A stretch of DNA of 26,930 nt from an uncultured Thermococci archaeon (lineage in GTDB: Archaea > CAYQAE01 > CAYVLA01): assembly GCA_964549615.1 (NCBI GenBank), contig CAZJVP010000100.1, positions 1 to 26,930 of the forward strand, written 5' to 3'. A program made the position numbers and the translations under genes. Each line of letters begins with the position of its first letter. The first letter of the stretch is position 1. Shown here piece by piece: positions 7,023 to 22,510 of the stretch. Under the pieces are notes generated by a model. The model was given only the letters and a program-made list of their open reading frames with translations. It searched no databases and was not told the DNA's origin.

Positions 7023-7379
7023 ATGGCTGGGTATCGATGGCGATGGCGCGGGCGCGGGGGTCCTGGCCGACCAATGAAGCCAAGGATCGTCAGGACCCAG
7101 CTACCCGCAAGTCGTTTCGTGCCAGTGTTGACGGGTCCATCGCAGCCCGGGGCAAGGCAGCCCGTAGTCCTTACGCTCGACGAGATGGAAGCCCTGCGCC
7201 TCGTCGACTACGAGGGTCTCCTTCAGGAGGAGGCCGCCAAGCGGATGGGGGTCTCCAGGGGGACGGTCTGGCGCTGCCTTGACAGTGCGCGCAGGAAGGT
7301 AGGCGCCATGCTTGTGGAGGGACGGGAGCTTATCCTAGCATCCGGGCCCCCTGAAGATGGACCGGCCATCGACGGCTGA
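7023..7379 (+). CDS. DUF134 (UPF0251) family predicted DNA-binding protein
   Basis: GRPMKPR...VVLTLDEMEALRLVDYEGLLQEEAAKRMGVSRGTVWRCLDSARRKV...LVEG signature with HTH. Confidence 0.9.
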   Translation: MAGYRWRWRGRGGPGRPMKPRIVRTQLPASRFVPVLTGPSQPGARQPVVLTLDEMEALRLVDYEGLLQEEAAKRMGVSRGTVWRCLDSARRKVGAMLVEGRELILASGPPEDGPAIDG

Positions 7380-8726
7380 AGCACCGGGCCAGTTCCGGGG
7401 TGACGACGTGAGTGTGCAAGCCGCGAAGCTCAGACGCGCTGCGCGGCTCTCCCTTCTGTTGAACACATTCATGGCAGTCCTGAAGATTGCAGGGGGCCTC
7501 TTGTCGGGCAGCATCAGCCTCCTTGGGGACGGGCTTCACTCAATCTTCGACTCGTTCTCCTCGGTTGCGGTGTACGCAGGTATCAGGTTGAGCGAGAGGC
7601 CCCCCGATGAGAGGCACCCCTACGGCTACTTCAAGGCCGAGACGCTCGCGGGTCTACTCGTGACGGGAGTACTGCTGCTTGCCGGCCCGGGCATAGCGTG
7701 GGAAGCCACGCGCAGCCTCAAGGCCGAAAGCGTCCCCGAGGCCATCCCCATCCTCATGGGGGTCGCGTTGGCATCCGCCCTTTTGAGCGAAGCCATGGCA
7801 AGGTACAAGCTCCGCGTCGGAAGCGAGTCGAACAGCTTCGCCCTGTTGGCCGACGCCTATCACTCTAGGGCGGACGTTCTGAGTTCAGGCTCAGTTTTCG
7901 TAGGTCTCGCCCTCGCGAATCTCGGCGTTCATTGGGGGACGCCGCTGCAGGGATGGTCGTGGCGGCCATCATCGCGCTGACCGGCGTAAGGCTCGGCCGT
8001 GAGGCGGCAGATGTCCTGATGGACAGGAGTGCGGGCGAGGGCGTCCTGTTGAGGATCACTCAAGCGGCGAGGTCTTCCCATATGGTCAAGGATTGCCGTG
8101 TGAAGCGCTCGCGCGCCGTCGGAAACCATATTTTCCTGGAGCTAGAGGTGGACCTCGACGCAGGGCTCTCGATTGAATCGGGGAACAGGATCGCCCGAGA
8201 GGTTGAGGGCAGAGTGAAGGCAGCTGTCCCGGAGGTTGAGTCCACGGTCGTCTCGCTCAAACCGCTCGGCATCGAGGCTAGGCGGATGTGGGCGCGCGGT
8301 CCTTGGTCAAAGGGGCGAGCCCTGGGCCATCGAGACCAAAGGTGGCGGCCGGCAGCGTCTGAAAGGAATACCTCGCCGAACAAGACCATCGCCGTTCCTG
8401 TCGCTGGGCGAAATGTGGAGGACCCGATGGAAAGGCATTTCGGCAGGAGCTCCGCGTTTGCAATCATCGAAACCGATGGGGCCAGGCTGGTGAATGCGAG
8501 GATCCTGAGGAACCCCCATCGGTCTGCTGAGTACGGCGCAGGGAAGCTTGCCGCGCGCCTGGTTCTGGAAGCTGGCGCGGATGTGGTCATAGCGGATGAG
8601 CTTGGGGAGGGCTCTGCCGTTGCATTGCGGGAATCCGGGGTGGAAACCCTTTCCGGCGTCAAAGCTGCGACGGTAAAGGAGGCGGTGGAGAAGTATCTGA
8701 AAAGGGAGATAAGGATCTCTCCGTAG
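7357..8726 (+). pseudogene. Cation diffusion facilitator (FieF-like) fused to C-terminal NifB/NifX domain; single frameshift in G5 run (pseudogene or sequencing error)
   Basis: DGLHSIFD, PPDERHPYGYFKAE and DAYHSRAD in ORF 7357-7980; TM6, dimerisation domain and IAVPV...HFGRS in ORF 7932-8726. One extra G at 7934-7938 joins them as VHWGDAAAG. Confidence 0.82.
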
Positions 8727-8930: not shown

Positions 8931-8989
8931 CTGCTCAAGGGCACGTCAATTACGTGCAATAGCAAAATTTATATTGTGCGAATGCACGT
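8931..8989 (+). promoter_or_regulatory. Promoter (TTTATA 8968-8973) flanked by three phased palindromic sites
   Basis: CTGCTC-AAGG-GCACGT (8931), ACGTGC-AATA-GCAAAA (8952), TTGTGC-GAAT-GCACGT (8974), spaced 21-22 bp; GGTGAT SD at 8997 before ATG 9008. Confidence 0.6.
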
Positions 8990-9007: not shown

Positions 9008-9355
9008 ATGGCTTGGAGAGGGCTTGGCTGGGCTGGCAGAGGCTGGCTCGGTCAATGGCCGGGAAGAGGACCTTTCAGCTACCTGCCGCCCTGGCAGAGG
9101 CCGGGATGGGTCTTTGGCAGAGGGGCTTGCTGGTGGCTGTTCAGCCCCTACTTCGGGGGAGGATACCCGTTGGCGGCATACCGATACCCGTGGGCCGCAT
9201 ACGGATACCCAGGATTTCCTCGATGGATGGGTTACGCCGGGGCTCCCGGATATGGCCCTTGGATGGGGTTTGGCGCAGTCGCGCCGCCCGCGTATCCTAG
9301 CTGGTATGCTGGCGCGGCGTACGGGTTCGGCCGGCCTTACGGCTACTTCTGGTGA
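9008..9355 (+). CDS. Gly/Trp/Tyr/Pro-rich low-complexity protein (DUF5320-associated type)
   Basis: WPGRGPFSYLPPWQRPGWVFGRGACWW motif; promoter and SD upstream; stop 6 nt before the next ATG. Confidence 0.75.
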   Translation: MAWRGLGWAGRGWLGQWPGRGPFSYLPPWQRPGWVFGRGACWWLFSPYFGGGYPLAAYRYPWAAYGYPGFPRWMGYAGAPGYGPWMGFGAVAPPAYPSWYAGAAYGFGRPYGYFW

Positions 9356-9361
9356 TGCAAT

Positions 9362-9892
9362 ATGGGTTACAGATGGAGGAACATGTACTACCTGACGGGA
9401 TTGCCGGGTTGGATGAGGTTCGGGTACTCCCCTGGTTGGGTAGGCAGGTCGGCAACGGGTCTACCGCCCACCGCTGAGTGGCTGATTTCAAGCGGCCTGC
9501 TTCCTCAGTTCCGCCAATACCTGGCGAGCGGCACGACGGCTCCGATGGCTCCGCCGGTCGCTCCCATCGGCGCACCTCTGACCCGTGAACAAGAGGTCCA
9601 GATACTGGAGCAGCAGGCAAGGGTCATCGAGGCGCAGCTCGAGGCTATGAGGAGGAGGTTGGAGGCGAAGCGGAAAGAGCCAGAGAGCAAGGAGCCCGGA
9701 CCAGCTCAACCATACTATCCACCATATGGATACGCGCCCGTGCCGTATTCCTCGCCATATGGTTCTCTCTCGCCCGAGGAAGAGCTGGCTGCGTTGGAGG
9801 ACTACAGGAGAGAACTCGACGAGGAAGTCAAGGGTGTGGAGGCAAGGATCGAGGAGCTCAAGAGGCTCACGGAAGGCAAGGAGAAGACATAG
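9362..9892 (+). CDS. DUF5320-like protein with two coiled-coil repeats
   Basis: YRWRNMYYLTGLPGWMRFG N-terminus; two heptad segments LTREQEVQILEQQ... and LSPEEELAALEDY... separated by a Pro/Tyr-rich linker; GGTGAT SD. Confidence 0.8.
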   Translation: MGYRWRNMYYLTGLPGWMRFGYSPGWVGRSATGLPPTAEWLISSGLLPQFRQYLASGTTAPMAPPVAPIGAPLTREQEVQILEQQARVIEAQLEAMRRRLEAKRKEPESKEPGPAQPYYPPYGYAPVPYSSPYGSLSPEEELAALEDYRRELDEEVKGVEARIEELKRLTEGKEKT

Positions 9893-9905
9893 GAGGTGTA
9901 AGTGA

Positions 9906-10205
9906 ATGCCCTACGGAATGGGTCCCTGGAGTTGGTTTTTCGGTCCCTACAGCTACTGGGGCTGGGGTAGGTGTCGATGGTTTCCGTGGCTGCCCCGACG
10001 GTGGTGGACAGGGATCTATGGCCCCATAGCACCGTACTGGCCGCCTGCACTGTCGAAAGAGCAGGAGCTAGCAATGCTTGAGGAAGAGGCAAGGCTCTTG
10101 GAGGAGGGACTCACCCAGATTCGCAGGCGATTGGAGGAGCTCAAGGAAGGAGAACCTGAGAAGGGAGAGGTCCGCAAGACAGAACCCAAGAAGCAGGTGG
10201 ACTAG
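9906..10205 (+). CDS. DUF5320-like protein
   Basis: Trp-rich N-terminus (GWGRCRWFPWLPRRWWTG) plus LSKEQELAMLEEEARLLEEGLTQIRRRLEELK coiled coil; GGAGGTG SD at 9892. Confidence 0.8.
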   Translation: MPYGMGPWSWFFGPYSYWGWGRCRWFPWLPRRWWTGIYGPIAPYWPPALSKEQELAMLEEEARLLEEGLTQIRRRLEELKEGEPEKGEVRKTEPKKQVD

Positions 10206-10784
10206 ATGAAAGTGGCGGTATCTGCAACAGGTCCGAGCCTAGATGACCAGGTCGATCCTAGGTTCGGGAGGTGCCAATGTTTCATCATTGCTGATGCGGA
10301 CAGCACGGCGTTCGAAGCTGTCCCCAATGCAAGCGCCGGCGCCATGAGTGGCGCTGGCATCGAGGCCGCGCAGACGGTTGTTAGCAGAGGGGTCCAGGCG
10401 GTCATCACCGGACAGGTTGGGCCAAACGCCTACCAGGTGCTAACGGCTGCGGGGATAAGGATCTTCACGGGAGCCTCAGGCACGGTTCGGGAGGCTATCG
10501 GTAAGTTCAAGAGGGGCGAACTGAGCGAAGCCGCCAACGCAGGCCCAGCAGGGCTCGGGATGGGTCGTGGCGGTGGAATGGGCCGTGGCATGGGGGCAGG
10601 GGGGTTCCCGGCGGAGCCATTGGCACAAGCGCCATTCGGCGGCGTTCCCATGGAGTCTCCGCCGATGTCGAGACAGCAGGAGATCTCGCTCTTGGAGAGC
10701 CAAGTGGAGAGCCTGCAACGGGAACTGGAGCGAGTAAGGAAGAGGCTCGGCGAACTTCGCGAATCACCCCGTAACGAAGGCTGA
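10206..10784 (+). CDS. NifB/NifX (dinitrogenase FeMo-cofactor-binding-like) protein with Gly/Met/Arg linker and C-terminal coiled coil
   Basis: MKVAVSATG...VDPRFGRC...GAGIEAAQ...ITGQVGPNA; GMGRGGGMGRGMG linker; MSRQQEISLLE coil. Confidence 0.9.
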   Translation: MKVAVSATGPSLDDQVDPRFGRCQCFIIADADSTAFEAVPNASAGAMSGAGIEAAQTVVSRGVQAVITGQVGPNAYQVLTAAGIRIFTGASGTVREAIGKFKRGELSEAANAGPAGLGMGRGGGMGRGMGAGGFPAEPLAQAPFGGVPMESPPMSRQQEISLLESQVESLQRELERVRKRLGELRESPRNEG

Positions 10785-10793
10785 GGTGGCAGG

Positions 10794-11144
10794 TTGGCGG
10801 GAGGCAGACTCAGGATAGCAGTGCCGACGTGCGGAGACCGCGGCCTAGAAGACACGGTGGCGGAGGTCTTCGGCAGGGCGAAGACCTTCACTATGGTGGA
10901 TGTAGATAGCGGTAGGGTTGAAGCGGTGAGGGTGCTTGTCAACCCGGCCGCGTCTTACAGGCAGGGCGCGGGTCCCATCGCAGTAAAGATGCTCATGGAC
11001 CACGGAGCCAACATCGTGGCAGCAGGTGATGTTGGCCCTGGTGTACTGAGTCTGCTCGAGCAGCACGGCGTGCCTATGTTGACGGTTAAACCAGGGACGC
11101 GGGTTGCGGAGGTCGTCAGGCTGGCAAGGGATCACGCGATCTGA
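10794..11144 (+). CDS. NifB/NifX family protein
   Basis: IAVPT...VFGRAKTF...NPA...GAGP...GDVGPG; GAGGTG SD before TTG start. Confidence 0.88.
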   Translation: MAGGRLRIAVPTCGDRGLEDTVAEVFGRAKTFTMVDVDSGRVEAVRVLVNPAASYRQGAGPIAVKMLMDHGANIVAAGDVGPGVLSLLEQHGVPMLTVKPGTRVAEVVRLARDHAI

Positions 11145-11325: not shown

Positions 11326-12180
11326 ATGGTGAGGGGGATCTCGATCAGGGTCCTTGTCGAGGACACGGCACGAGAGGCTGGAGGCAGGTATCTGTCCCAG
11401 CACGGTCTCTCACTGGTCGTGGACGCAGAGACGAATCATGGCAGGGCTTCGGTCATCCTAGATACCGGTCCCTCTGCAGAGGCCGTGGCCCGCAACGTGG
11501 AGGCCATGGGAGTCGATCTAGGCACCGTGGTTGCCATCGTCCTTACCCACGGTCACTATGATCACGTGGGTGGGGTGTTGCAGGTTCTCAAGTCGGTTCG
11601 TCGACCCATGCCTGTCATAGCCCATCCCAGCACCTTCAGCCCCAAGATCGTTCTCTCCCCAAGTCTCAGGTTTGCTGGGTCACCGTTCAGCGTATCAGAC
11701 ATAGCCAAACGGGGGGGAATCCCGCTTCTTGGCAGAAACTCCATCCGCCTGGCTGAAGGCATTATGACCAGCGGAGAGGTAAAGCGCGAAACACAGTTCG
11801 AACAGGCCGAGGGCTTCTGGACCATCGAGAACGAGAGGTTCGTCGAAGATTGGATGCCCGATGATCAGGCGCTGATATTGAACCTCGAGGAGCGGGGTTT
11901 GGTCGTCTTGGTCGGATGTGCCCATTCGGGAATCGTGAATACCCTTAGAGCCGCCCAAGACGTGGCTTCGGAGCGCAGGATACATGCGGTCGTGGGCGGC
12001 TTCCATCTCTGCGGGGCCAGCGAGGAGCGAATTGCCAGAACGGTGGACGAGTTGCTTAGGCTTAACGTCCAGCTAGTCGCGCCGTGCCACTGTACGGGCT
12101 CGACGGCCACAGCTCGGCTCATGCAGGGCCTCGGCGGGCGCTGCAGGCCGCTTCACACGGGAGATGTGATCAGGCTCTAG
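11326..12180 (+). CDS. MBL-fold metallo-hydrolase (COG1237 / MJ0301-like)
   Basis: HGLS, LDTG, LTHGHYDHVGG, DDQAL, GCAHSG, GGFHL, PCHCTG motifs. Confidence 0.9.
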   Translation: MVRGISIRVLVEDTAREAGGRYLSQHGLSLVVDAETNHGRASVILDTGPSAEAVARNVEAMGVDLGTVVAIVLTHGHYDHVGGVLQVLKSVRRPMPVIAHPSTFSPKIVLSPSLRFAGSPFSVSDIAKRGGIPLLGRNSIRLAEGIMTSGEVKRETQFEQAEGFWTIENERFVEDWMPDDQALILNLEERGLVVLVGCAHSGIVNTLRAAQDVASERRIHAVVGGFHLCGASEERIARTVDELLRLNVQLVAPCHCTGSTATARLMQGLGGRCRPLHTGDVIRL

Positions 12181-12237
12181 CTGGGTGAAGGGATGGCTGC
12201 CAGGGGTCGCATGTCAAGAAGCGTCGGCGGCACCGAT

Positions 12238-12921
12238 ATGAGGACAACACGGCGGCGTGCGGCCTACCTGGAAGCGATCTACAGATTGCAGGAGGAATCA
12301 GGAACCGCGAGGACATGTGAGCTGGCCCTTCGAATGGGTGTATCGGCTCCAAGCGTCACGGAGGTCGTTCGCAGGCTGAGGAAGGAAGGCCTGGTGATCT
12401 ATCAGCCATACAGGGGTGTGAGATTGACGGATGAGGGGCGCAGGCTGGCCCTGGGCCAGATAGGCAAGCACCGCCTCGCAGAGCAACTGCTCTTCGGCGT
12501 TCTACGTATCGACTGGACTAGGGTGCACGAAGAAGCATTGAGACTTCAATGTGGCATTTCGGACGAGGTCGTCGGGCCGTTGGAGAAGGCCCTTGGCTAC
12601 CCGCGAAGGTGCCCGCACGGGAACCCGATACCAACAAAATGCGAGGGGATAGTCGAGGAGGAATCGGAATCGTTGACCAGTATTGGGGCCGGAGAAAGCG
12701 GGGTGGTAGTGAAGCTCACAAACGAGACACCCGAGGTACTCGAACGGCTCGCCAAGATGGATGTCAAGCCGGGCGCGACCATCTGGGTTCGGGAGGTAAG
12801 ACCTCAAGGTCAGGTCGTGGTTGTGACTGGAGATGGAAAGGTCCACATGCTGCCCTGGGAGGCCGCACGCACGGTCAAGGTCAGAAGGGTGCGCCCGGGA
12901 TCCGGATCCGGGAATCGGTAG
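12238..12921 (+). CDS. DtxR/MntR-family transcriptional regulator with FeoA domain
   Basis: YLEAIYRL, HTH LALRMGVSAPSVTEVVRRL, YQPYRGVRLTDEG, KHRLAE, CPHGNPIP, C-terminal SH3-like FeoA. Start 12238 or upstream ATGs (12193/12211). Confidence 0.88.
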   Translation: MRTTRRRAAYLEAIYRLQEESGTARTCELALRMGVSAPSVTEVVRRLRKEGLVIYQPYRGVRLTDEGRRLALGQIGKHRLAEQLLFGVLRIDWTRVHEEALRLQCGISDEVVGPLEKALGYPRRCPHGNPIPTKCEGIVEEESESLTSIGAGESGVVVKLTNETPEVLERLAKMDVKPGATIWVREVRPQGQVVVVTGDGKVHMLPWEAARTVKVRRVRPGSGSGNR

Positions 12922-13016: not shown

Positions 13017-13934
13017 CTGCTCGGATTTGAGAAGGAGCAGAGGATCTTCGAGATCGGCCGTGTCAAGGTCGGGGGACAGCCCGGCCAGCTACCCACCGTC
13101 CTGATAGGAAGCATCTTCCATCCGGGGCATAGGATCGTCCGGGACCCCGGGAAGGGCATTTTCGACCGAAAACGGGCCGAGATGCTAGTCCGGACGCAGG
13201 AAGCGCTGTCGGAGAAGACTGGGAACCCTCACATGCTGGACGTTGTGGGCGAGACCCCAGAGGCATTGAAGAGATACATAGACTTCGCATCGGAGGTCAC
13301 GGAAGCTCCCTTTCTCATCAATGGTCCATCGGCGGACGTGAGGCTGGAGGCGAGTCGTCATGCCGCTAGCATTGGGCTTGAGGAGAGGGCCGTGTACGAT
13401 TCCATAAACTGCAAGGTCACCGTGGAAGAGACGGCGGCATTGGCTGAGACCGGGATAAAGGCGGCGGTGGTCCAAGCCTTCAACCCGCGGAACCCGTGGC
13501 TTGAAGGTATGCGGCAGCAGCTCGTGGGAAGCTCGGGCGCTGAAGGGCTACTGGAGGCAGCCTCCAGAGCGGGTGTTGAGAAGCAACTGATTCTAACGCC
13601 CGTGCTCGACATTCCGAGCATTGGTGTCGCGGCGCGGGCCATCCGTGCATTGAAGGATGAGCTGGGCCTCCCAACGGGTACCGCTCCGATCGGCGCAGTG
13701 GCGCGTTGGCGGAAGGCTGGGGACTTCGAGGTGTCCTCAAAGAGGCTCGTTAGAGCGGCGGCCGCGGCCTTGGCTCAGTCCATGGGTGCCAACTTCATCA
13801 TCTACGGCTCAATGGAGAGGGCTGCTGACATGTTTCCAGTCTGCGCCCTGATCGACGCGATGATAGCGTACAATGCGATAGCCACGGGAATTAAGCCGTT
13901 GACGAGAAACCATCCTTTGTACAGGATCCTCTGA
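13017..13934 (+). CDS. mtrH: Tetrahydromethanopterin S-methyltransferase subunit H-like protein, probable CTG start
   Basis: In frame upstream of ORF 13182 reads (M)LGFEKEQRIFEIGRVKVGGQPGQLPTVLIGSIFH, the MtrH N-terminus; ends HPLYRIL; SD AAGGAGGT at 13002-13009. Confidence 0.85.
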   Translation: MLGFEKEQRIFEIGRVKVGGQPGQLPTVLIGSIFHPGHRIVRDPGKGIFDRKRAEMLVRTQEALSEKTGNPHMLDVVGETPEALKRYIDFASEVTEAPFLINGPSADVRLEASRHAASIGLEERAVYDSINCKVTVEETAALAETGIKAAVVQAFNPRNPWLEGMRQQLVGSSGAEGLLEAASRAGVEKQLILTPVLDIPSIGVAARAIRALKDELGLPTGTAPIGAVARWRKAGDFEVSSKRLVRAAAAALAQSMGANFIIYGSMERAADMFPVCALIDAMIAYNAIATGIKPLTRNHPLYRIL

Positions 13935-14511: not shown

Positions 14512-15498
14512 TCACCGTGATCTGAAGTAGTCTTCATGCCGATGTCGGACCTTCACCGCCGCGCCGCGGTGCTCGAGTTCCCTTAAGGAGCTCACTATGA
14601 CGTTCATTGGCAGGTTCAGGCTTGAAGCGATGTCCTCCACTCTGCAGGGCCTCCTCTTTATCAGGCTCAGTATCTCAGCCTCCGTTTCGCGGTGACCGAG
14701 CCTTTTAGGGGACCGGTTTGCCCTTTCTTCGTACCTGGAGACGATCTTGGCGTTCGTGACAGACAGCTTGAATTTCTTGGCGATTGCCTCGAGCTTGTCT
14801 GGTTCAAGGGCGAGAACGAACTTCTCCGAGGGTGGCCTGGTCGGAGTGTTGATCTGGATCTCATCCGGTTCGATCCTCTCCGCTTGGCGCATCATGGCCT
14901 CAACGGCCTCGTCCCCGACGTTAGTGAGCCCGCCATTTTCGGATTCAAAGAACATCATCTGCAAAGCCAGTTCGCCAGTCATCTCACCTCTGAGCTTCAC
15001 CAGGCCTTCAACGATCCTGCCTTGCAGGATGCCCCGAGCAGGTCGGTTGACGGCCTCGAAAAGCCGTTGGTCCGGGGCGTCGAGCTTGGCAACCACGAGG
15101 TCAGCCATGGCGAGACTCCTCCTTACCTTTTCCTTCCCAACGAGGGATGAGTTCGTTAAGACAGCGATCGGTTTGTCCGTGAGGTTTCTCAAGCTTTCGA
15201 TGATCGCGCCCAGCTCGGGGTTCAGCGTGGGCTCTCCGCTTCCTGAGAAGGTGACGTAGTCGACTGAGGCGGGATCCAAAAGGTCAAGCGCCGTCTTTAC
15301 ATCGCGCAGGACCTGTTGTTTGGTTACCTGGGCCTGGACGAACCCCGATGCCTTCCGAAGAGTTCTTCCTAACTGACAGTACACGCAATCGAAGGTGCAG
15401 GTCTTCGGCGGCGGCACGACATCTATGCCCAGGGAAGGGCCTAGGCGCCACGAGGGAACAGGGCCGTACACCGCTGAAATTCTTCGTTTGCTTCCCAT
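14512..15498 (-). CDS. Radical SAM protein (COG0731-like) with C-terminal HTH-like domain
   Basis: YGPVPSWRLGPSLGID, CTFDCVYC (CxxxCxxC), TFSGSGEPTL, LTNSSL, KLDA, QINTPTRP. Confidence 0.9.
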   Translation of the reverse strand: MGSKRRISAVYGPVPSWRLGPSLGIDVVPPPKTCTFDCVYCQLGRTLRKASGFVQAQVTKQQVLRDVKTALDLLDPASVDYVTFSGSGEPTLNPELGAIIESLRNLTDKPIAVLTNSSLVGKEKVRRSLAMADLVVAKLDAPDQRLFEAVNRPARGILQGRIVEGLVKLRGEMTGELALQMMFFESENGGLTNVGDEAVEAMMRQAERIEPDEIQINTPTRPPSEKFVLALEPDKLEAIAKKFKLSVTNAKIVSRYEERANRSPKRLGHRETEAEILSLIKRRPCRVEDIASSLNLPMNVIVSSLRELEHRGAAVKVRHRHEDYFRSR

Positions 15499-15548
15499 GG
15501 TTCATCTTGTCCTTCCGTCGGCCTCTCGTTGGGCAGCCCAACGATGAG

Positions 15549-15759
15549 TTAGGCAAACCCCTTTGGGACGAGATCCACCGCACAGAGCATGAAGAGCGCC
15601 GTGAACGCGATGAACGCCAACCAGCCGATGAAGGGGCTGGCGGTTTTGCCCGACAAGGACACTTGGAGGGGACCCTCGACGGCTCGGGCAAGAGACAGCA
15701 CATGAGTGATCGAACGGGGTGTTGTAGGCATCCCCGTGATGGCGTAGCTTCGCGTTCAC
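15549..15759 (-). pseudogene. Possible C-terminal remnant of a membrane protein (ABC-2 permease-like)
   Basis: VNA/SYAITGM followed by one hydrophobic helix (FIGWLAFIAFTALFMLCAV); no intact gene. Weak. Confidence 0.25.
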
Positions 15760-16331
15760 TTCTCATCACTCCTTTTCGATGTCGAATGGGACGCACACCT
15801 CATGAAGACCAGTATGCGGTCCTGAAACTCCCTGCCTTTCAAGATGAAACCTGTCTCGGTCACGAGGTCCTCAACTTCGGCCGGCCTCAAATGCATCGGG
15901 AATATCGTCAGGACGGCAGCGGGCTTTGCCACCCTGTGGATCTCATCTAGGAGGCCCTTACGATCTTCTACCTCTTGGAGTACATCGATGAGGAGCACGT
16001 GATCAACCGTTTCCTTCTCCAGGGGGATCTTTCCCTCCCCGGTAGACCTGATGATCACGATATTCGTCAGGCCCTCCTTTGCGGCTTTCGCCCTAACCCG
16101 CTCAAGCGCAGCGTCGCTCACATCCAAGGCGTAGACCCTCCCTTTCTGTGTCACCAGTCTTGCCGCCGGAATCGTGTACTTGCCAGACCCGCAACCGAAA
16201 TCCAGAACAACCTGCCCGGGCTTGAAGCCGAGCTGGGCCAGAAGCTCGTTCGGATTCTGGTCCAACCATTTCTTGAACCGCATTTCCCCGAGATGCGCGA
16301 CCATTCCGAAGTGCTTCGAGACTCGCCTCAC
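15756..16331 (-). CDS. Class I SAM-dependent methyltransferase
   Basis: VVLDFGCGSG motif I, VYALDVS, VDHVLLIDVL, EIHRVAKP. Confidence 0.88.
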   Translation of the reverse strand: MRRVSKHFGMVAHLGEMRFKKWLDQNPNELLAQLGFKPGQVVLDFGCGSGKYTIPAARLVTQKGRVYALDVSDAALERVRAKAAKEGLTNIVIIRSTGEGKIPLEKETVDHVLLIDVLQEVEDRKGLLDEIHRVAKPAAVLTIFPMHLRPAEVEDLVTETGFILKGREFQDRILVFMRCASHSTSKRSDEK

Positions 16332-16399: not shown

Positions 16400-17275
16400 T
16401 CATGGTTGTGAGTTCCTCCCTAAGGTGAACAGGACGTCATGCCAAGCCTTTCGTATCTCACGGGACGCAGGGCAACGGGGCGAGTATTCGACCACCGGTT
16501 CGCCTGCCACCATGGCCCGAATCACGGTTGGATCAAAGGGTATCATGCCTACGACACTGACGCCGTTTCGCCGGCAAGACTCCACAATGCTCTCCGCGTT
16601 CGCCTCGTTGATGTCGTGCATGTTGATGATGACCACTTGTCTGACCTTGAAGTGGTTTGCCACGGCCATCACCCTCTCTAGGTCGTGCCGCCCCGAGAGG
16701 GTTGGCTCCGCGACCATGACCGCTAGGTCAACGCCCGTGAGAGAGGAGATCAAGGGACACCCTATCCCGGGCGGCCCATCGATGAGTATGGTGTCTAGGC
16801 CTTCCTTCTCGGCTAGGAACCTTGCGTTCTGTCTTACCAGGGCCACCAATTTGCCCGAGTTTGCCTCGGCGGTGCCGAGCTTCGCATGGGACATCGGCCC
16901 GTACTTGGTATCGGAGATGTATGCGTGGCCGGAGACCCTCTCTCGGAGGCTGATCGCGCCTGCCGGACAGACGTATGCGCAGACGCCGCACCCCTCGCAC
17001 ATTATCGGGTCGACCTCAAAATCCCTGATTGCGTCGTATCTGCAGGCATCCTTGCACAGTCCACACTCAGTGCACTTCTCCTTGTCGATCGTCGCAAGCT
17101 TTGAGCCTTGGAATTCCTGTTTGGAGACCACTCTTGGTCTGAGGAGCAGATGCAGGGTGGCTGCGTCCACATCGCAGTCAGCCAGAACGATCCTGCCGGC
17201 CAGAGCGGCAAAGGATGCAGCTATTGTGGTCTTTCCTGTCCCTCCCTTGCCGCTGGCTACCACCATCTGCCTCAT
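16400..17275 (-). CDS. MinD-superfamily P-loop ATPase with inserted 2x[4Fe-4S] ferredoxin (COG1149), paralog 2
   Basis: SGKGGTGKT, DCDVDA, CTECGLCKDAC, CEGCGVCAYVCP, DGPPGIGCP, EPTLSG; ATG 17275 overlaps the upstream TGA (ATGA). Confidence 0.92.
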   Translation of the reverse strand: MRQMVVASGKGGTGKTTIAASFAALAGRIVLADCDVDAATLHLLLRPRVVSKQEFQGSKLATIDKEKCTECGLCKDACRYDAIRDFEVDPIMCEGCGVCAYVCPAGAISLRERVSGHAYISDTKYGPMSHAKLGTAEANSGKLVALVRQNARFLAEKEGLDTILIDGPPGIGCPLISSLTGVDLAVMVAEPTLSGRHDLERVMAVANHFKVRQVVIINMHDINEANAESIVESCRRNGVSVVGMIPFDPTVIRAMVAGEPVVEYSPRCPASREIRKAWHDVLFTLGRNSQP

Positions 17276-18111
17276 TTGACGGCAGCCTCCTTCGCCCTGG
17301 TCGCGAGCGAGGCCAACTTGTCCTTCCACTCGTGCATCCGGGTGACGAAGGGCGTTCCTTCCGAGTAAAGTTCTGCGATCGCCTTGTCGAACGGAATCTC
17401 AAGGAGAATTGGCACGCCCTCTTTCCGGCAATAGTCGTACACTTTCGTGTCACCGATCCCCGCGCGGTTGACGACGACGCCAAAGGGGATTCCCATCTGC
17501 CGAAGCAGACCGACCATGAGCTCGAGATCGTGGAGTCCGAAGGGCGTTGGCTCCGTGACGAGGATGCAGTAGTCAGTTCCCCATACGGATTGAATGACCG
17601 GGCAGGACGTCCCAGGTGGGGAATCGATGATGGTGATGCGAGTCGGGTTGACATTTCTCTTGAGCTCACGTATGACTGGACCGGGCATCGGTTCTCCCAA
17701 GCTCAGCTCGCCGTACGAGAAGTCGATGCGCCCGGCCGTGCCTGTCTTTATGACTCCGACCTCGCGGTCGACCTCAGTTATCGCCTTCTTGGGGCAGACA
17801 AGGCGGCATCCCCCGCAGCCGTGGCAAAGGTGGGAAAACACCATCGTCCTCTCCGGCACGACAGCTATGGCATGGAACTGGCAGAACTCCGCGCACTTGC
17901 CGCATCGGTCGCAAAGCGCATGGTCGACCTTGGGCACGGGCACGTAGACCGGCCTGACGGCATCGATGCGCGGCTTCAGGAATATGTGGGCGTTCGGCTC
18001 CTCGACGTCGCAGTCGATCAGCTGAACCGGTTCCTGCATGGAGAGCGCCATGTTGACGGCCACTGTGGTCTTCCCTGTTCCCCCTTTGCCGCTCGCTACG
18101 GAGATCATCAC
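17272..18111 (-). CDS. MinD-superfamily P-loop ATPase with inserted 2x[4Fe-4S] ferredoxin (COG1149), paralog 1
   Basis: SGKGGTGKT, DCDVEEPN, CDRCGKCAEFC, CHGCGGCRLVCP, DSPPGTSCP, EPTPFGLHD. Confidence 0.92.
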   Translation of the reverse strand: MMISVASGKGGTGKTTVAVNMALSMQEPVQLIDCDVEEPNAHIFLKPRIDAVRPVYVPVPKVDHALCDRCGKCAEFCQFHAIAVVPERTMVFSHLCHGCGGCRLVCPKKAITEVDREVGVIKTGTAGRIDFSYGELSLGEPMPGPVIRELKRNVNPTRITIIDSPPGTSCPVIQSVWGTDYCILVTEPTPFGLHDLELMVGLLRQMGIPFGVVVNRAGIGDTKVYDYCRKEGVPILLEIPFDKAIAELYSEGTPFVTRMHEWKDKLASLATRAKEAAVK

Positions 18112-18225: not shown

Positions 18226-19095
18226 TCATCTGACGGAATGCTCGATCGTGTCGACGATCGATCTGAAAGCCTTTGCGGCCGGCGAATCTGGATCCTTTAG
18301 CATGAAGGAAGCACCCTCGTCAGAGGCCTGGCAAATGCGCGGGTCGAGGGGGATCGAGCCGAGAAACGGAACACCCAGTTCGGTAGCTATCTTGGCTCCT
18401 CCGCCTTTCTTGAAGATTTCGACCTGGGCACCGCAGTTGGGGCAGACGAACCCGCTCATGTTCTCAATCATGCCTATGATGGGCACCCTCAGCTCGCGTG
18501 CGAAGGTAGCCGCCTTCTTCACGACGATCTGAGAGGCCTCCGAGGGTATCGTAACGATGATGGTCCCGTCCATTTCGGGGATGAGTTGCACGATGCTGAG
18601 TGGCTCGTCGCCCGTGCCCGGGGGAAGATCCACGAGGAGGAAGTCGAGTTTGCCCCATACGAATTCGGACAAGAACTGTCGGATGGCAGCCATCTTGAGC
18701 GGGCCCCGCCAGATGACCGGTGCCCCGTCCTCTGGGAGGAGGAAGTCCATTGAGACGACCCTGATGCCGAAGCGGCCAACTGCAGGAAAGGCTCCAGGCG
18801 GCCCCACGGTGATATGCTCTCCCCTCATGCCGAGCATCTTCGGGATGCAAGGCCCGTGGATGTCGGCATCGAGAACTCCCACCTGATAGTTTCTTTGGGC
18901 TAGGGCAATCGCCAGGTTCGCAGTTACGGTGCTCTTTCCTACACCTCCCTTGCCGCTTATGATCGCAATCTTGTGTTTGATCTGGCTCATTCTGGCTTTG
19001 AGCAATTCGTCCTGCCCAGAGACCTGCCCCTTGTCGTCGGTCGATCCCTCTGCCATGTTGTGATGGGCAGCTTGGCGGTCGCAATGCTCGCTCAT
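18226..19095 (-). CDS. mrp: Mrp/ApbC/NBP35 family Fe-S cluster carrier ATPase
   Basis: SGKGGVGKS, DADIHGP, VIWRGP, DLPPGTGD, ENMSGFVCPNC. Confidence 0.93.
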   Translation of the reverse strand: MSEHCDRQAAHHNMAEGSTDDKGQVSGQDELLKARMSQIKHKIAIISGKGGVGKSTVTANLAIALAQRNYQVGVLDADIHGPCIPKMLGMRGEHITVGPPGAFPAVGRFGIRVVSMDFLLPEDGAPVIWRGPLKMAAIRQFLSEFVWGKLDFLLVDLPPGTGDEPLSIVQLIPEMDGTIIVTIPSEASQIVVKKAATFARELRVPIIGMIENMSGFVCPNCGAQVEIFKKGGGAKIATELGVPFLGSIPLDPRICQASDEGASFMLKDPDSPAAKAFRSIVDTIEHSVR

Positions 19096-19104
19096 ATTGT
19101 CACT

Positions 19105-20463
19105 TCATGTGGCTTTCGAGCTGCGTCTGACTGCGGCGTCTTCGGCCGCGTTGGCGATCTGGTAGGTTATGGGTGAGCCCGTAAGCGCTGGATGGGTTCC
19201 CATCTGGAACGTCGCGATCTCCTCCATCGTCATCCTCTTCTGGATCATCGCCGCCAGGATGTTGGCGACCTCGCCGCTCGTCGGGCCACAGCAGACCTGC
19301 CCGCCTAGCAGCTCGCCCGTCGCTTTGTCAAACACGAGCTTGACTTTCATTTCGGTGGTCTTTGGCATGGAGGCCGGGTGCTTATCAGGCCCCATCGCGA
19401 TGCCAACGATGGGTTCATACATTGCGTCTCTCGCCGCTTTCTCCGTGAGTCCCGCTGCACACATCGCATGATCGCCGATCGTGGTCGAGAACGTGCCTAT
19501 CGTGCCCTCATTCCTCCTTCGCAGCTGGAAGAGGTTTGCACCCGCGATGCTTCCTTCCCTAGCTGCAACAGAGGCCAGTCTGAAGGCTACCGGCTGCCTC
19601 GTGAAGAACGACGTCTTCTCCGCACAGTCCCCGACGGCGAAGATCGTCTTGTCGCTGGTCCTCATGTATTGATCGACCCACACCGCGCGCTGGTGTCCCA
19701 GCCTCAAACCGGCCTGTTCGGCGAGTTCGGTGTTGGGCGCAACACCAATGGCCACAAGAACTAGGTCGGCTGTCAGTTCCTCGCCCGTGCTCAGTCGGAC
19801 CTTCTGGACTTTCTCATCGCCCAGGATGGCTTCCACGCGACCGTTCACCCTGGTTTTCACGCCCCTTTCCGACAGTCTCTTCTCGGCAAGAACGCAGAAC
19901 TCCTCATCATATGCAAGTTCGAGGCAGTGGGGCAGCATCTCGACGATCGTCACATCTAGGCCCCTTTTCCTGAACTCGTCCGCAAACTCCATGCCGACGA
20001 ATCCTCCACCGATGACCAAGACATGTGCGGCGTCTTTCAGCGCGTCGGACAACTTCTTCAGGTATTCGAAGTCCTTTCTTGCGAAGAATACGTTCTCCAG
20101 ATCGATACCGGGAATCTTGGGGACGATCGGCGATGAACCCGTTGCCAAGACCAGCCTTTCGTATTCGATCGTTGAACCGCTTGAAGTGAGGACCGATCGC
20201 TTGTTTCTGTCTATCGATGTCACCTCTTCGACAAGGAGTTCGATGTTGTTTTTCGATAGGAGGGCGTCAGGAATCAGGTTCTTGTCTGGTGAGCCGATCG
20301 TTCCCAAGATGTAGGGGATTCCGCACGGTACCAGCACCTGCCTCTCCCTTCGGACGAGCGTGATCTGGGCGTCCTCATGATGTGCCCTTGCGGTCACCCC
20401 CGTGGCTATGCCGGCCGCGCTTCCGCCTATGATGAGTATGTCGGTCTTTTCCGTATGGGCCAT
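19105..20463 (-). CDS. FAD-dependent pyridine nucleotide-disulfide oxidoreductase (CoA-disulfide reductase/NADH oxidase family)
   Basis: IIGGSAAG, single-Cys motif VPCGIPY, LATGS, IGGGFVGME, FAVGDC, C-terminal dimerisation domain with THP. Confidence 0.9.
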   Translation of the reverse strand: MAHTEKTDILIIGGSAAGIATGVTARAHHEDAQITLVRRERQVLVPCGIPYILGTIGSPDKNLIPDALLSKNNIELLVEEVTSIDRNKRSVLTSSGSTIEYERLVLATGSSPIVPKIPGIDLENVFFARKDFEYLKKLSDALKDAAHVLVIGGGFVGMEFADEFRKRGLDVTIVEMLPHCLELAYDEEFCVLAEKRLSERGVKTRVNGRVEAILGDEKVQKVRLSTGEELTADLVLVAIGVAPNTELAEQAGLRLGHQRAVWVDQYMRTSDKTIFAVGDCAEKTSFFTRQPVAFRLASVAAREGSIAGANLFQLRRRNEGTIGTFSTTIGDHAMCAAGLTEKAARDAMYEPIVGIAMGPDKHPASMPKTTEMKVKLVFDKATGELLGGQVCCGPTSGEVANILAAMIQKRMTMEEIATFQMGTHPALTGSPITYQIANAAEDAAVRRSSKAT

Positions 20464-20516
20464 CTCCTCTGCCTCGTGATATCCGTGGGTCAGGCTTGCG
20501 ACTGAGCCTGCGCTCG

Positions 20517-20888
20517 TCAGAGGCGGTGACGTGCTTGCCTGCAGGCTTCGGTCAACCCCCTCAGCCCGCCTCCCACGTACCCTTGCACTGCGTCTTGCAA
20601 GGTGGTGACGTCGCCAGTGAAGACGGCTATTCCCCTCATCTGGAAAGCATTCAGCCCCCTTGGCCCCATGCCCTTGACTACCAAGGCATCGGGCCTGAGG
20701 CCTGCGATGAGCTCCTCGACCGACACGCGCCCGCCCAGGTGTTCGCCGGTGTTCTCTTCTACCCGGACATCCTGTATCTTGCCGTCTTTCCCGACCTCAA
20801 CGATGGCGAAGAAGGGTGCCCTTCCGAAGTGCTGGGCAACGATCGACTTTAGTCCCTCATCCCTCTCGATGGGAACGATGACTCTCAT
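20517..20888 (-). CDS. NifB/NifX family protein
   Basis: HFGRAPFF, ENTGEHLGG, KGMGPRG, C-terminal AC...H. Confidence 0.88.
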   Translation of the reverse strand: MRVIVPIERDEGLKSIVAQHFGRAPFFAIVEVGKDGKIQDVRVEENTGEHLGGRVSVEELIAGLRPDALVVKGMGPRGLNAFQMRGIAVFTGDVTTLQDAVQGYVGGGLRGLTEACRQARHRL

Positions 20889-20904
20889 TGTTGTCGCCTT
20901 GTGG

Positions 20905-20950
20905 GTTCAAGAAGCGAATCAGTTATACATCTATTGTTCGAAAATCGAAC
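20905..20950. promoter_or_regulatory. Pair of 15-bp Lrp-type palindromes flanking a TATA-like box
   Basis: Perfect GTTCGA-AAA-TCGAAC at 20936-20950; degenerate GTTCAAGAAGCGAAT at 20905-20919 (11/15, 31 bp away); TTATAC between them. Confidence 0.65.
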
Positions 20951-21007
20951 CAAGCCGCTCCCTGACAATCCAATGGCCAGCTTCCGTTCATCGGTGAGGT
21001 GGGGCTC

Positions 21008-21868
21008 ATGAGGTTGAACCTAGATTGCATTCCTTGCTTTCAGAGGCAGGCGCTTCAGGCCATACGGTTCGTGACCGATGACGACGCCGTTCACGAGCTT
21101 GTCTTGCGGGAGGTCATGAAACGGCTTCAAGACCTCAGGTGGGAGTCCAGTCCGCCCACAATGGCTCGGCAGGTTCACCGGCTGATCAGGCAGCTTGGTG
21201 GAAACAGGGATCCCTACGCACGTGTCAAGAGGGAAAGCAACGATCATGCTTTGAGGCTGTATCCCAAGCTCAAACGGATGGTCGAGGAGAGCAGGGATCC
21301 GCTCATGACGGCTGTCAGGTTCGCGATTGCAGGCAACGTCATGGACTTCGGGGCGTTCCAGGAGTTTGACCTAGAGAAGGCTCTAGACTCAAGCCTGAAG
21401 ATGAGGTTCGGTGTGGACGACTACCCGAGATTCAGGGCGATGCTCGGGAATGCTAGGAAGGTTCTCTACTTTGCGGATAACGCGGGCGAGATAGTTCTCG
21501 ACAGGCTTTTGATCGAGACCATGATGAATCGTGCACGCGTCAACGAGGTCAGCCTAGTGCTCAAGGGCGGCCCGCTCATCAATGATGCGACGGTTGCGGA
21601 TGCAGTCTATGTGGGGCTGGAAAAAGTCCCAGGAGTGAAGTTCCTGAATGTGAGCAACGGAGATCCCGGAACGGGCCCGGAAAGGACCTCTCAAGAGGTC
21701 GTGGAGTGGATTGACAGGCACGACCTAGCCATATCGAAGGGTCAAGGCAACTACGAGGATCTGAGCGAACTGCACAACATCTTCTTCATGCTCATCGCCA
21801 AATGTCCGTTGGTGGCCTCGGATCTGGGGGTCAGTCCGGGAGACGTGGTGCTGAAGTACAGGCCCTAG
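21008..21868 (+). CDS. DUF89/ARMT1-like damage-control phosphatase
   Basis: DCIPCF, DPYARVK, AIAGNVMDFG, ADNAGE, PLINDAT, SKGQGNYE, AKCP. ATG 21008 (ORF opens at GTG 20999). Confidence 0.9.
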   Translation: MRLNLDCIPCFQRQALQAIRFVTDDDAVHELVLREVMKRLQDLRWESSPPTMARQVHRLIRQLGGNRDPYARVKRESNDHALRLYPKLKRMVEESRDPLMTAVRFAIAGNVMDFGAFQEFDLEKALDSSLKMRFGVDDYPRFRAMLGNARKVLYFADNAGEIVLDRLLIETMMNRARVNEVSLVLKGGPLINDATVADAVYVGLEKVPGVKFLNVSNGDPGTGPERTSQEVVEWIDRHDLAISKGQGNYEDLSELHNIFFMLIAKCPLVASDLGVSPGDVVLKYRP

Positions 21869-21909
21869 GAGAGATATCATGGTTGGCCACGACATCGCAT
21901 GGGTTTACG

Positions 21910-21924
21910 CTTCGAAAAACGAAC
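21910..21924. promoter_or_regulatory. Third copy of the 15-bp palindrome, upstream of the Lrp gene
   Basis: CTTCGAAAAACGAAC, 13/15 match to 20936-20950, ending 16 nt before ATG 21941. Confidence 0.65.
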
Positions 21925-21940
21925 TGGGAGGAAGGTCGGA

Positions 21941-22510
21941 ATGGACGATGTGGACCGAAAAGTAGTATCACTTCTGCAGATCGATGGCAGGATGACCTAC
22001 GAGGAGCTTGGCAAACAGGTAGGGTTAACTGGCGTGGGCGTGAAGAAGAGGGTCAGAAAGATGCTCAACCACGAGTTGATAAGGATCTCCGCTCTTCTGA
22101 ACGCCGAGAAGCTTGAGCTTCAGGCAGCCGTGGTTCTTCTCGAAATGGAGAATGCCGAAGCGATGAGACGAATCATAGAGCGGTTCAAGAACTGCCCTCG
22201 CGTGGTGCAGATCTTCTCAACAATTGGAGGCTACAATCTCATCGCGTTCATAGTTGCGGAGGACCGTGGAACGCTCGAAAGCGTATCGATGGAGAAGTGC
22301 TCTTTGAGGAGCAGCGAAGGGATTCGCAGGTCAGAGTTCTATCCCGTGGGCAAGGTCCATTATGCGCCATTTCTTCAGGTGAGGCAATACTTGGCGCACA
22401 AGGGCAGGCAAGAAACTCCCTGCAGTGTGGACTGCCGCCCGTGCGAGAGCTTCCATACCGGAAGGTGCGTAGCCTGCCCCGCAACGATGCACTACCGTGG
22501 CTCGCTGTGA
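21941..22510 (+). CDS. Lrp/AsnC family regulator with C-terminal Cys-rich extension
   Basis: MDDVDRKVVSLLQIDGRMTYEELGKQVGLT HTH, RAM domain (IGGYNLI), tail PCSVDCRPC...RCVACP. Confidence 0.88.
   Translation: MDDVDRKVVSLLQIDGRMTYEELGKQVGLTGVGVKKRVRKMLNHELIRISALLNAEKLELQAAVVLLEMENAEAMRRIIERFKNCPRVVQIFSTIGGYNLIAFIVAEDRGTLESVSMEKCSLRSSEGIRRSEFYPVGKVHYAPFLQVRQYLAHKGRQETPCSVDCRPCESFHTGRCVACPATMHYRGSL

Follow-up and report, generated by a model that had tools for sequence, protein, structure and literature searches.

Three adjacent genes of an uncultured archaeon (positions 9362-10784 of the analyzed stretch of 26,930 nucleotides, hereafter called the window) encode proteins that end in the same type of helix, the C-terminal helix of the Pfam family DUF5320 (PF17253). 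These helices, referred to below as tags, likely constitute an antiparallel zipper capable of self-pairing and, likely, cross-pairing, which would tie a tagged protein of the ORP/NifX type (ORF C) to the products of ORFs A and B in a predicted assembly for iron-sulfur handling or storage. We assign this reading as a whole a probability of roughly 0.5. The DUF5320 family and the ORP-type operon have already been catalogued; what is new is the arrangement of a two-tag protein, a one-tag protein and a tagged ORP protein, together with evidence on the geometry of the tag.

The tag is a helix of 32 residues and occurs four times in the window, each time on the forward strand. ORF A (9362-9892, +, 176 aa) holds two copies. 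Its alignment with 47 full-length two-tag homologues distinguished a conserved Gly/aromatic head (residues 1-56), a Pro spacer, a Q-type tag (A1, 9578-9673; E6, E11, R27, R32), a 31-aa Pro/Tyr linker and an acidic Y-type tag (A2, 9767-9862; Y13, R14, E25). ORF B (9906-10205, +, 99 aa) is composed of a Trp/Pro/Arg-rich head and a single Q-type tag (10050-10145). ORF C (10206-10784, +, 192 aa) contains a NifX-like/ORP domain (10242-10511; PF02579, 85.6 bits), a Gly/Met-rich linker (10530-10664) and a Q-type tag (10665-10760). A preceding sequence-only reading had placed one tag four times in these three genes, and all of its peptides translate exactly at 9578, 9767, 10050 and 10665. Compared pairwise, the four tags agree at 8-16 of their 32 residues and, in the DNA, at 45-55 of 96 bases; they are therefore old copies and not a recent DNA repeat, and the identity at the DNA level rules out recent duplication or gene conversion.

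An HMM built from 70 single-tag homologues, none of them from the window, was applied to the genome translated in six frames (61,611 segments). It scored A1 at 42.2 bits, B at 31.6, C at 30.8 and a copy on contig C20 at 16.0, while the best other coiled coil reached 10.0. A2 was absent from the top 30 matches of this search; it represents a second tag subtype, which scored 67.1 bits with an HMM of 47 homologous second tags. A mixed tag profile of 38 rows recovers the four window tags as well as the C20 copy. This fifth copy (L003 1522-1704; G000:C20 about 264906-265088) belongs to a small protein (60 aa) whose head is rich in Cys, His and Gly and whose gene is not near any NifX gene; similar small proteins are found in L012 and L168. 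The Pro-rich spacers described in the sequence-only reading are real: the 15 residues preceding the tags contain 5, 4, 4 and 4 Pro, compared with at least 4 Pro in 1.4% of 58,252 15-mers of the genome. The polarity described there, acidic at the N-end and basic at the C-end, applies to A1, B and C (charge of the last 8 residues +4, +2 and +3, respectively) but not to A2 (-1, with a net charge of -7). Positions 29-30 are acidic throughout the family, so the C-end of the tag is not simply basic. Mis-binning of the contig was considered and rejected (GC 0.595 vs 0.599; tetranucleotide rank 21 of 25 among size-matched contigs, no outlier). Over window positions 9188-9826, a contig from a second study differs at 8 places and shows no gap.

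All three proteins exceed the PF17253 cut-off of 27 bits (A 35.3, B 32.3, C 36.7), and the tag corresponds to the last ~35 of the 99 model positions. The canonical N-terminal segment (model positions 1-30) is missing, the matches of A, B and C beginning at positions 59, 42 and 30, respectively. In comparison with the Pfam family, the N-terminal third is thus replaced by three different heads, A bears two tags, and C joins the tag to a NifX domain. NCBIfam contains no family for A, B or the upstream ORF A0. No function for DUF5320 and no study of the tag were found in the openly accessible literature searched; the supplementary tail alignments and IssX clade of PMC5524996 could include tagged NifX.

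The tag is widespread. The 38-row profile matched 1,170 protein clusters at E <= 0.001, and genomes with matches numbered 28-55 in each of four taxon samples (81-201 genomes each); the phylum of the window organism is represented by 5 genomes in the database, all of which carry the tag. DUF5320 also occurs in Methanosarcina acetivorans and Thermotoga maritima. In 162 of 171 proteins examined among the matches listed, which include the best 150 of the 1,170 clusters, no more than 10 residues separate the last tag from the C-terminus. In a profile search for other tag-bearing domains, which the sequence-only reading had suggested, the NifX domain is the only folded partner among the matches listed, the remainder being Pro/Gly/Tyr/Trp-rich heads, and genome scans add a ferredoxin and PadR-family regulators. 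Of 126 NifX ORFs, 55 are tagged, all 55 being of the C type (80 loci were gathered via A, so that the set is biased to A). Heads and tags are modular across genomes.

One of the two rarer carriers is a 4Fe-4S ferredoxin of 71 aa (L141 1280-1495, -), which ends in a tag-like helix and is represented by two full-length clusters. Its gene immediately follows a tagged gene and precedes genes for DtxR and NifX, and its homologues are named Methanocellales; it is possible that this ferredoxin is a second client of the tag system. PadR-family regulators with a C-terminal tag-like helix (L164 1051-1620, +, a strong match; L184 1045-1749, -, a weak one) were found outside the ORP-type context. Unrelated coiled coils among the weak matches were discarded, i.e. 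a prefoldin (L173), a nucleotidyltransferase (L185), L170, L182, L183, L190 and P0169.

The geometry of the tag could be predicted from its charge pattern. The heptad core is formed by a positions 7, 14, 21 and 28 and d positions 10, 17, 24 and 31, and two g residues are near-invariant (E6 in 265 and R27 in 258 of 271 tags). Scoring followed the textbook rules for charge pairs between e and g positions. With this scoring, antiparallel packing with full overlap yielded a mean of +3.93 for the 271 tags vs 0.01 +/- 0.13 for shuffled sequences, in which the helix-dipole charge bias is left in. In the 10 window pairs the parallel score is negative throughout, and the antiparallel score ranges from +2 to +6. 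All four window tags combine E6/E11 with R27 and K or R at position 32, a pattern that is repulsive in parallel and fits antiparallel packing only.

The bias left by the shuffle is removed in a test of covariation between positions. For this purpose, 448 distinct tags were passed through an 18-bit score filter and a filter on positions 10 and 27, and dereplicated at 70%, which left 193. The top covarying pair, the best of 300 tested, was 11e-32e, as the antiparallel register predicts, with 102 E11/K32, 20 K11/E32, 8 E/E and 4 K/K tags. Two positions separated by 21 residues along a single straight helix are out of each other's reach, and we therefore assign this contact to a pair of antiparallel helices. 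The swap of charges occurs on four head types (A, B, NifX and canonical). In a tree built from 58 NifX domains it requires 4 changes, 3 of them forced by well-supported branches; the tags were excluded from this tree, which has few columns and comprises 16 standard, 7 swapped and 35 unclassed rows. K11/E32 prevails among bacterial tags (17 of the 18 doubly charged ones in a set of 43); this state is compatible with parallel packing too and, being nearly the only one, makes the bacterial set uninformative as an independent covariation test.

The e/g scoring and the compensatory 11/32 swap support the antiparallel orientation that had been proposed for the helix in the sequence-only reading. It is thus likely that the tags pack antiparallel with full overlap, E6 being paired with R27' and E11 with K/R32', in a zipper that may be either a dimer or a four-helix bundle. 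A PDB search with the tag profile returned generic or designed coiled coils only (best E 0.0016). A parallel trimer has also been considered, as RhxxhE is a motif of parallel trimeric coiled coils. R27-h-x-x-h-E32 is present in 31 of the 271 tags (mainly an archaeal set), and E32 occurs in 23 of the 43 bacterial tags, usually with K11, which would suit a parallel E6-K11' pair. Position 32 of the window tags is R, K, K and R, with E in none of them, their charge pattern is repulsive in the parallel orientation, and a single antiparallel geometry covers both charge states; we therefore consider the trimer very improbable.

The next question concerns the partners of each tag. No hetero-specific charge code was detected by e/g scoring among the window tag pairs, the scores being 6, 2, 6 and 4 for homo-pairs and 3-6 for hetero-pairs. 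Hetero-pairing among A, B and C without a specificity code is the second step of the proposed mechanism, and judging from the sequence evidence we rate its chances slightly above even. The main competing explanation would restrict the tag to homo-oligomerization: each protein would pair only with copies of itself, thereby multiplying its head or its NifX domain, and the motif would be shared because of domain shuffling and not because of mutual binding. A homodimer fully accounts for the 11/32 swap, the homo scores in the window equal or exceed the hetero scores, and distinct subtypes are maintained side by side. Moreover, lone tag genes are the commonest state, and Y-type tags also stand alone. 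The lack of a charge code forbidding hetero-pairs counts against this explanation, as does the distribution of tagged proteins among genomes.

Co-occurrence was tallied by hand in 101 genomes of one archaeal phylum. A stand-alone tag protein is encoded in 14 of the 14 genomes with a tagged NifX, compared with 21 of the 57 with untagged NifX only (24 of 57 when three canonical DUF5320 matches are counted) and 5 of the 30 without NifX. The difference between 14/14 and 21/57 is a pattern for which the Fisher p-value is too optimistic, as the fusion genomes largely represent one clade; the Methanophagales NifX fusions form one group in the 58-domain tree. The NifX fusion of L063, labelled Desulfobacteria, nests among them and probably comes from a mislabelled archaeal bin. 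Loci that encode both tagged NifX and stand-alone tags numbered 72, or 30 after dereplication, and in 28 of these 30 no repulsive 11/32 combination was found. The mean compatibility was 1.18 vs 0.55 in shuffled pairs, a value in which kinship remains and which tag copying within the operon could also explain. In L155 and L088 both partners are swapped, as hetero-pairing predicts, whereas the polarities are mismatched in L030 and L086, which favours homo-oligomers. Taken together, we regard exclusive homo-oligomerization as unlikely, although a real contender.

The sequence-only reading had further suggested that the tag recruits NifX as cargo. Indirectly this gains support from the stand-alone partner in all 14 fusion genomes and from the compatible polarities. 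That the tag is a dedicated signal for NifX is contradicted by lone tags that lie beside untagged NifX in many genomes. Of 40 genomes that encode stand-alone tag proteins, 26 lack a tagged NifX, and among 20 lone-tag loci of Thermoproteota, gathered from small-ORF matches, NifX adjoins in 12 and is tagged in none. Only 1 of the 4 NifX domains of the genome carries a tag. The absence of a hetero-specific charge code and the basic C-end in only three of the four window tags were also counted against a dedicated cargo tag. The 26 genomes without a fusion and the lone tags beside untagged NifX point to self-association as the baseline; by its sequence distribution the tag would primarily be a self-association helix, with the NifX fusion an add-on and not a dedicated targeting signal.

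The two-tag protein A could connect other chains or close on itself. Two-tag proteins pair the Q and Y subtypes in either order (58 QY, 8 YQ and 5 QQ, according to rough automatic typing, the QY rows being mostly A orthologues). This nearly constant combination, linkers of 7-53 residues that permit a turn, and an A1:A2 antiparallel score of +4 would all suit a hairpin, in which case A would cross-link nothing. Two AlphaFold runs gave open models, with the helices separate both in complete A (48 sequences, pTM 0.27) and in its two-tag half (55 sequences, pTM 0.34), and Y-type tags lacking a Q partner occur in other genomes; the hairpin is accordingly improbable. An obligate Y:Q heteropair was dropped as well, because Y-type tags also stand alone and Y:Q pairs score 2.87 vs 4.15 for Q:Q. 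The models hint, weakly, that both tags of A may be available to partners on other chains. A cross-linking role for this two-copy protein, another suggestion of the sequence-only reading, is compatible with the predicted absence of a hairpin but would not be required, as two-tag proteins are a minority form. Low-rmsd structural matches to the A models span one helix only; Foldseek of both models against the PDB gave no match, VIA-align produced generic helices (best Z 4.9), and a search of the ESM Atlas with residues 110-192 of C gave no usable match.

Several irregularities of the two-tag gene were observed. It is broken in the linker by an in-frame stop in L018 (7974-8540) and by a frameshift in L029 (7989-8520), L028 retains one tag only, and P0157 fuses A-like and B-like parts. 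Either fusion and fission events or assembly errors are concentrated in the A linker. Four relatives of the window genome (G001-G004) encode single-tag proteins only, and most of the two-tag homologues with names come from records of the Thermoproteota type. The A gene of the window may have been acquired laterally.

ORFs A, B and C belong to a larger gene cluster. Upstream lies ORF A0 (9008-9355, +, 115 aa), a tag-less, aromatic/Gly/Pro-rich protein with 35 aromatic and zero acidic residues and no Pfam match; its head type bears the tag in other genomes. The A0 stop codon is located within the GGTGA ribosome-binding site of A (window 9347-9364), which indicates coupled genes. Read-through or selenocysteine incorporation at the in-frame TGA between A0 and A was rejected because this TGA is part of GGTGA and because both the distance between the two genes and their relative frame vary in relatives (in frame in L016, L017, L019, L021, L024 and L026; out of frame in L018, L023 and L028). 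Downstream of C, ORF D (10794-11144, +) encodes an untagged NifX-like protein, and a further one is encoded at 20517-20888 (-). Besides that of C, the window contains three more NifX-like domains.

Upstream of A0-A-B-C-D, a TATA-like box (TTTATA, 8968-8973, +) is followed by TGTGC-N4-GCAC (8975-8987), a candidate operator for the DUF134 helix-turn-helix protein encoded at 7023-7379 (+), which is the commonest neighbour of lone tag genes. The motif is present in 20 of 100 loci vs 2-8 in shuffles, and precedes the start of A by about 240-290 bases in L016, L019, L020, L022, L023, L024, L026, L027 and L028. Together with the named homologues, the TATA-like box and the GGTGA ribosome-binding site point to an archaeal organism.

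Other features of the region were noted. A gene that combines a cation-efflux (CDF) protein with a NifX-like domain (window 7357-8726) is split over two frames at a G run at ~7930-7940; the same letters are present in a contig of the probable source run, which is not independent. The Gly/Met/Arg repeat in the C linker (10550-10600) is of variable length: two additional 10-residue units are present in P0142, which is otherwise the same protein, and contigs break there. The cluster flanks (window 11326-12921, 14512-16331 and 19105-22510) encode an MBL-fold protein, a DtxR/FeoA regulator, a radical SAM protein with a C-terminal winged helix, a methyltransferase, a FAD disulfide reductase, an ARMT1-like phosphatase and an AsnC regulator. 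In 80 related loci, radical SAM genes recur in 30, MBL in 18, ARMT1 in 10 and DtxR in 8. A stand-alone gene of the MtrH methyltransferase family follows DtxR (window 13182-13934).

The gene content of the locus resembles the ORP cluster of Desulfovibrio, whose complex comprises Orp3, Orp4, Orp5, Orp8 and MrpORP (PMC6345978). The best solved match of the ORF C domain is the Desulfovibrio ORP 2wfb (84.5 bits, E 5.4e-23), a best match and not a tree-based assignment of orthology, and this NifX-like domain would be the Orp8 counterpart. Two MinD-like (CbiA/ParA) ATPases with 4Fe-4S (Fer4) domains (16400-17329 and 17272-18111, -) correspond to Orp3 and Orp4, and they are accompanied by an Mrp/NBP35 ATPase (18226-19095, -). 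Unlike MrpORP, the window Mrp has no NifX part; the NifX domains are encoded by separate genes. For this reason it misses the cut-off of the MrpORP model NF041136 (344.9 bits vs 450) and covers model positions 1-249 of 365. The two systems also differ in that the solved ORP chain has 120 residues, leaving no room for a tail or a tag, and that the nearby regulator candidate here is DUF134 and not sigma54/OrpR, for which no gene was found among the 25 window ORFs scanned. No tag proteins are mentioned for the ORP complex in the available text of PMC6345978. On the basis of this gene content we regard the locus as a predicted archaeal-type counterpart of the ORP cluster.

A second known system provides a model for the heads. 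IssA (PF2025), the thioferrate store of Pyrococcus furiosus, is composed of an IPR003731 domain and a 70-residue unstructured tail with 11 Pro, 7 cationic, 14 aromatic and 15 Gly residues (20% aromatic, 10% cationic), for which thioferrate binding was proposed; the purified protein forms homomeric, cytoplasmic particles of 20-300 nm, and MTH1175 was called IssA-type (all from PMC5524996). C shares the IPR003731/PF02579 domain, and the heads of A0, A and B resemble the IssA tail in composition and have a pI of about 10. The C domain scores 84.5 bits with ORP vs 69.5 with MTH1175, while D scores best with MTH1175, in a comparison that contained no IssA sequence. Domain and tail are on one chain in IssA; here the sticky segments are found in trans on A0, A and B, and the 45-residue tail of C contains 2 aromatic and 2 basic residues and has a pI of 6.2. 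Whereas the IssA tail is unstructured, A, B and C, though not A0, end in a coiled coil. That purified IssA particles are homomeric counts against the mixed assembly proposed here. The same division is apparent across the family: stand-alone heads (n=367) have a median of 15.7% aromatic and 0% acidic residues, and the tails between NifX and tag (n=77) have 1.6% aromatic residues. This complementarity offers a reason for the tag on C, namely to bring sticky segments in trans.

As a third step, we tentatively propose, at somewhat less than even odds, that an IssA-like store is split over several genes. The metal-sulfide scaffold domain would come from C, the cationic-aromatic tails would be provided by the heads of A0, A and B, and the two-tag A would raise valency and could cross-link where present. 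Metal binding and particle formation are features that we infer from IssA and ORP by analogy.

Two other functions of the heads were weighed against such a store. Trp/Arg-rich heads might lie at the membrane interface, so that the zipper ties ORP to the membrane or cell pole and positions the complex. The B head is basic, with 17 aromatic residues among 48, and in Desulfovibrio MrpORP is polar, and an amphipathic helix at the C-terminus has been described for Orp3/Orp4 (PMC6345978). Transmembrane segments are lacking (top 19-residue hydropathy 0.84), the same chemistry yields cytoplasmic particles in IssA (PMC5524996), and in many lone-tag loci MinD-like ATPases are not nearby; membrane positioning is distinctly improbable. 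Alternatively, the heads could bind nucleic acids in the manner of RGG proteins, the zipper oligomerizing a regulator that acts with DUF134. This would be in line with the DUF134 gene adjoining 16 of the 20 lone-tag loci of Thermoproteota, with the tag-like helix of the PadR protein of L164, and with a Methanosarcina mazei DUF5320 protein that matches an RG-rich quadruplex-binding motif, although this match comes solely from a motif scan (PMC7565180). In the window, the A0, A and B heads are rich in Trp, Tyr and Pro and contain few RGG repeats, and the constant folded partner is a metal-sulfide domain, so we see very little likelihood of a nucleic acid-binding role.

The tags recall, by analogy, polyketide synthase (PKS) docking domains and SNARE motifs, in which short terminal helices are likewise common to partners and one protein may have two copies. 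They have no sequence relation to either, and no pairing code was found for the tags.

The storage and hand-out of iron and sulfide in anaerobes is represented by a sole characterized store, IssA, and the role of the ORP complex is unsettled; the DUF5320 tag, in turn, defines a family that is as widespread as it is little studied. In a broader reading, which we consider speculative and rather unlikely, the DUF5320 helix would be a general antiparallel address tag of anaerobes, with sticky-headed one- and two-tag proteins building a membrane-less iron-sulfur granule loaded with ORP/NifX and, in some lineages, with ferredoxin. If this were true, archaea and anaerobic bacteria would possess a natural scaffold-client compartment for Fe-S storage, with a portable targeting signal of 32 residues.
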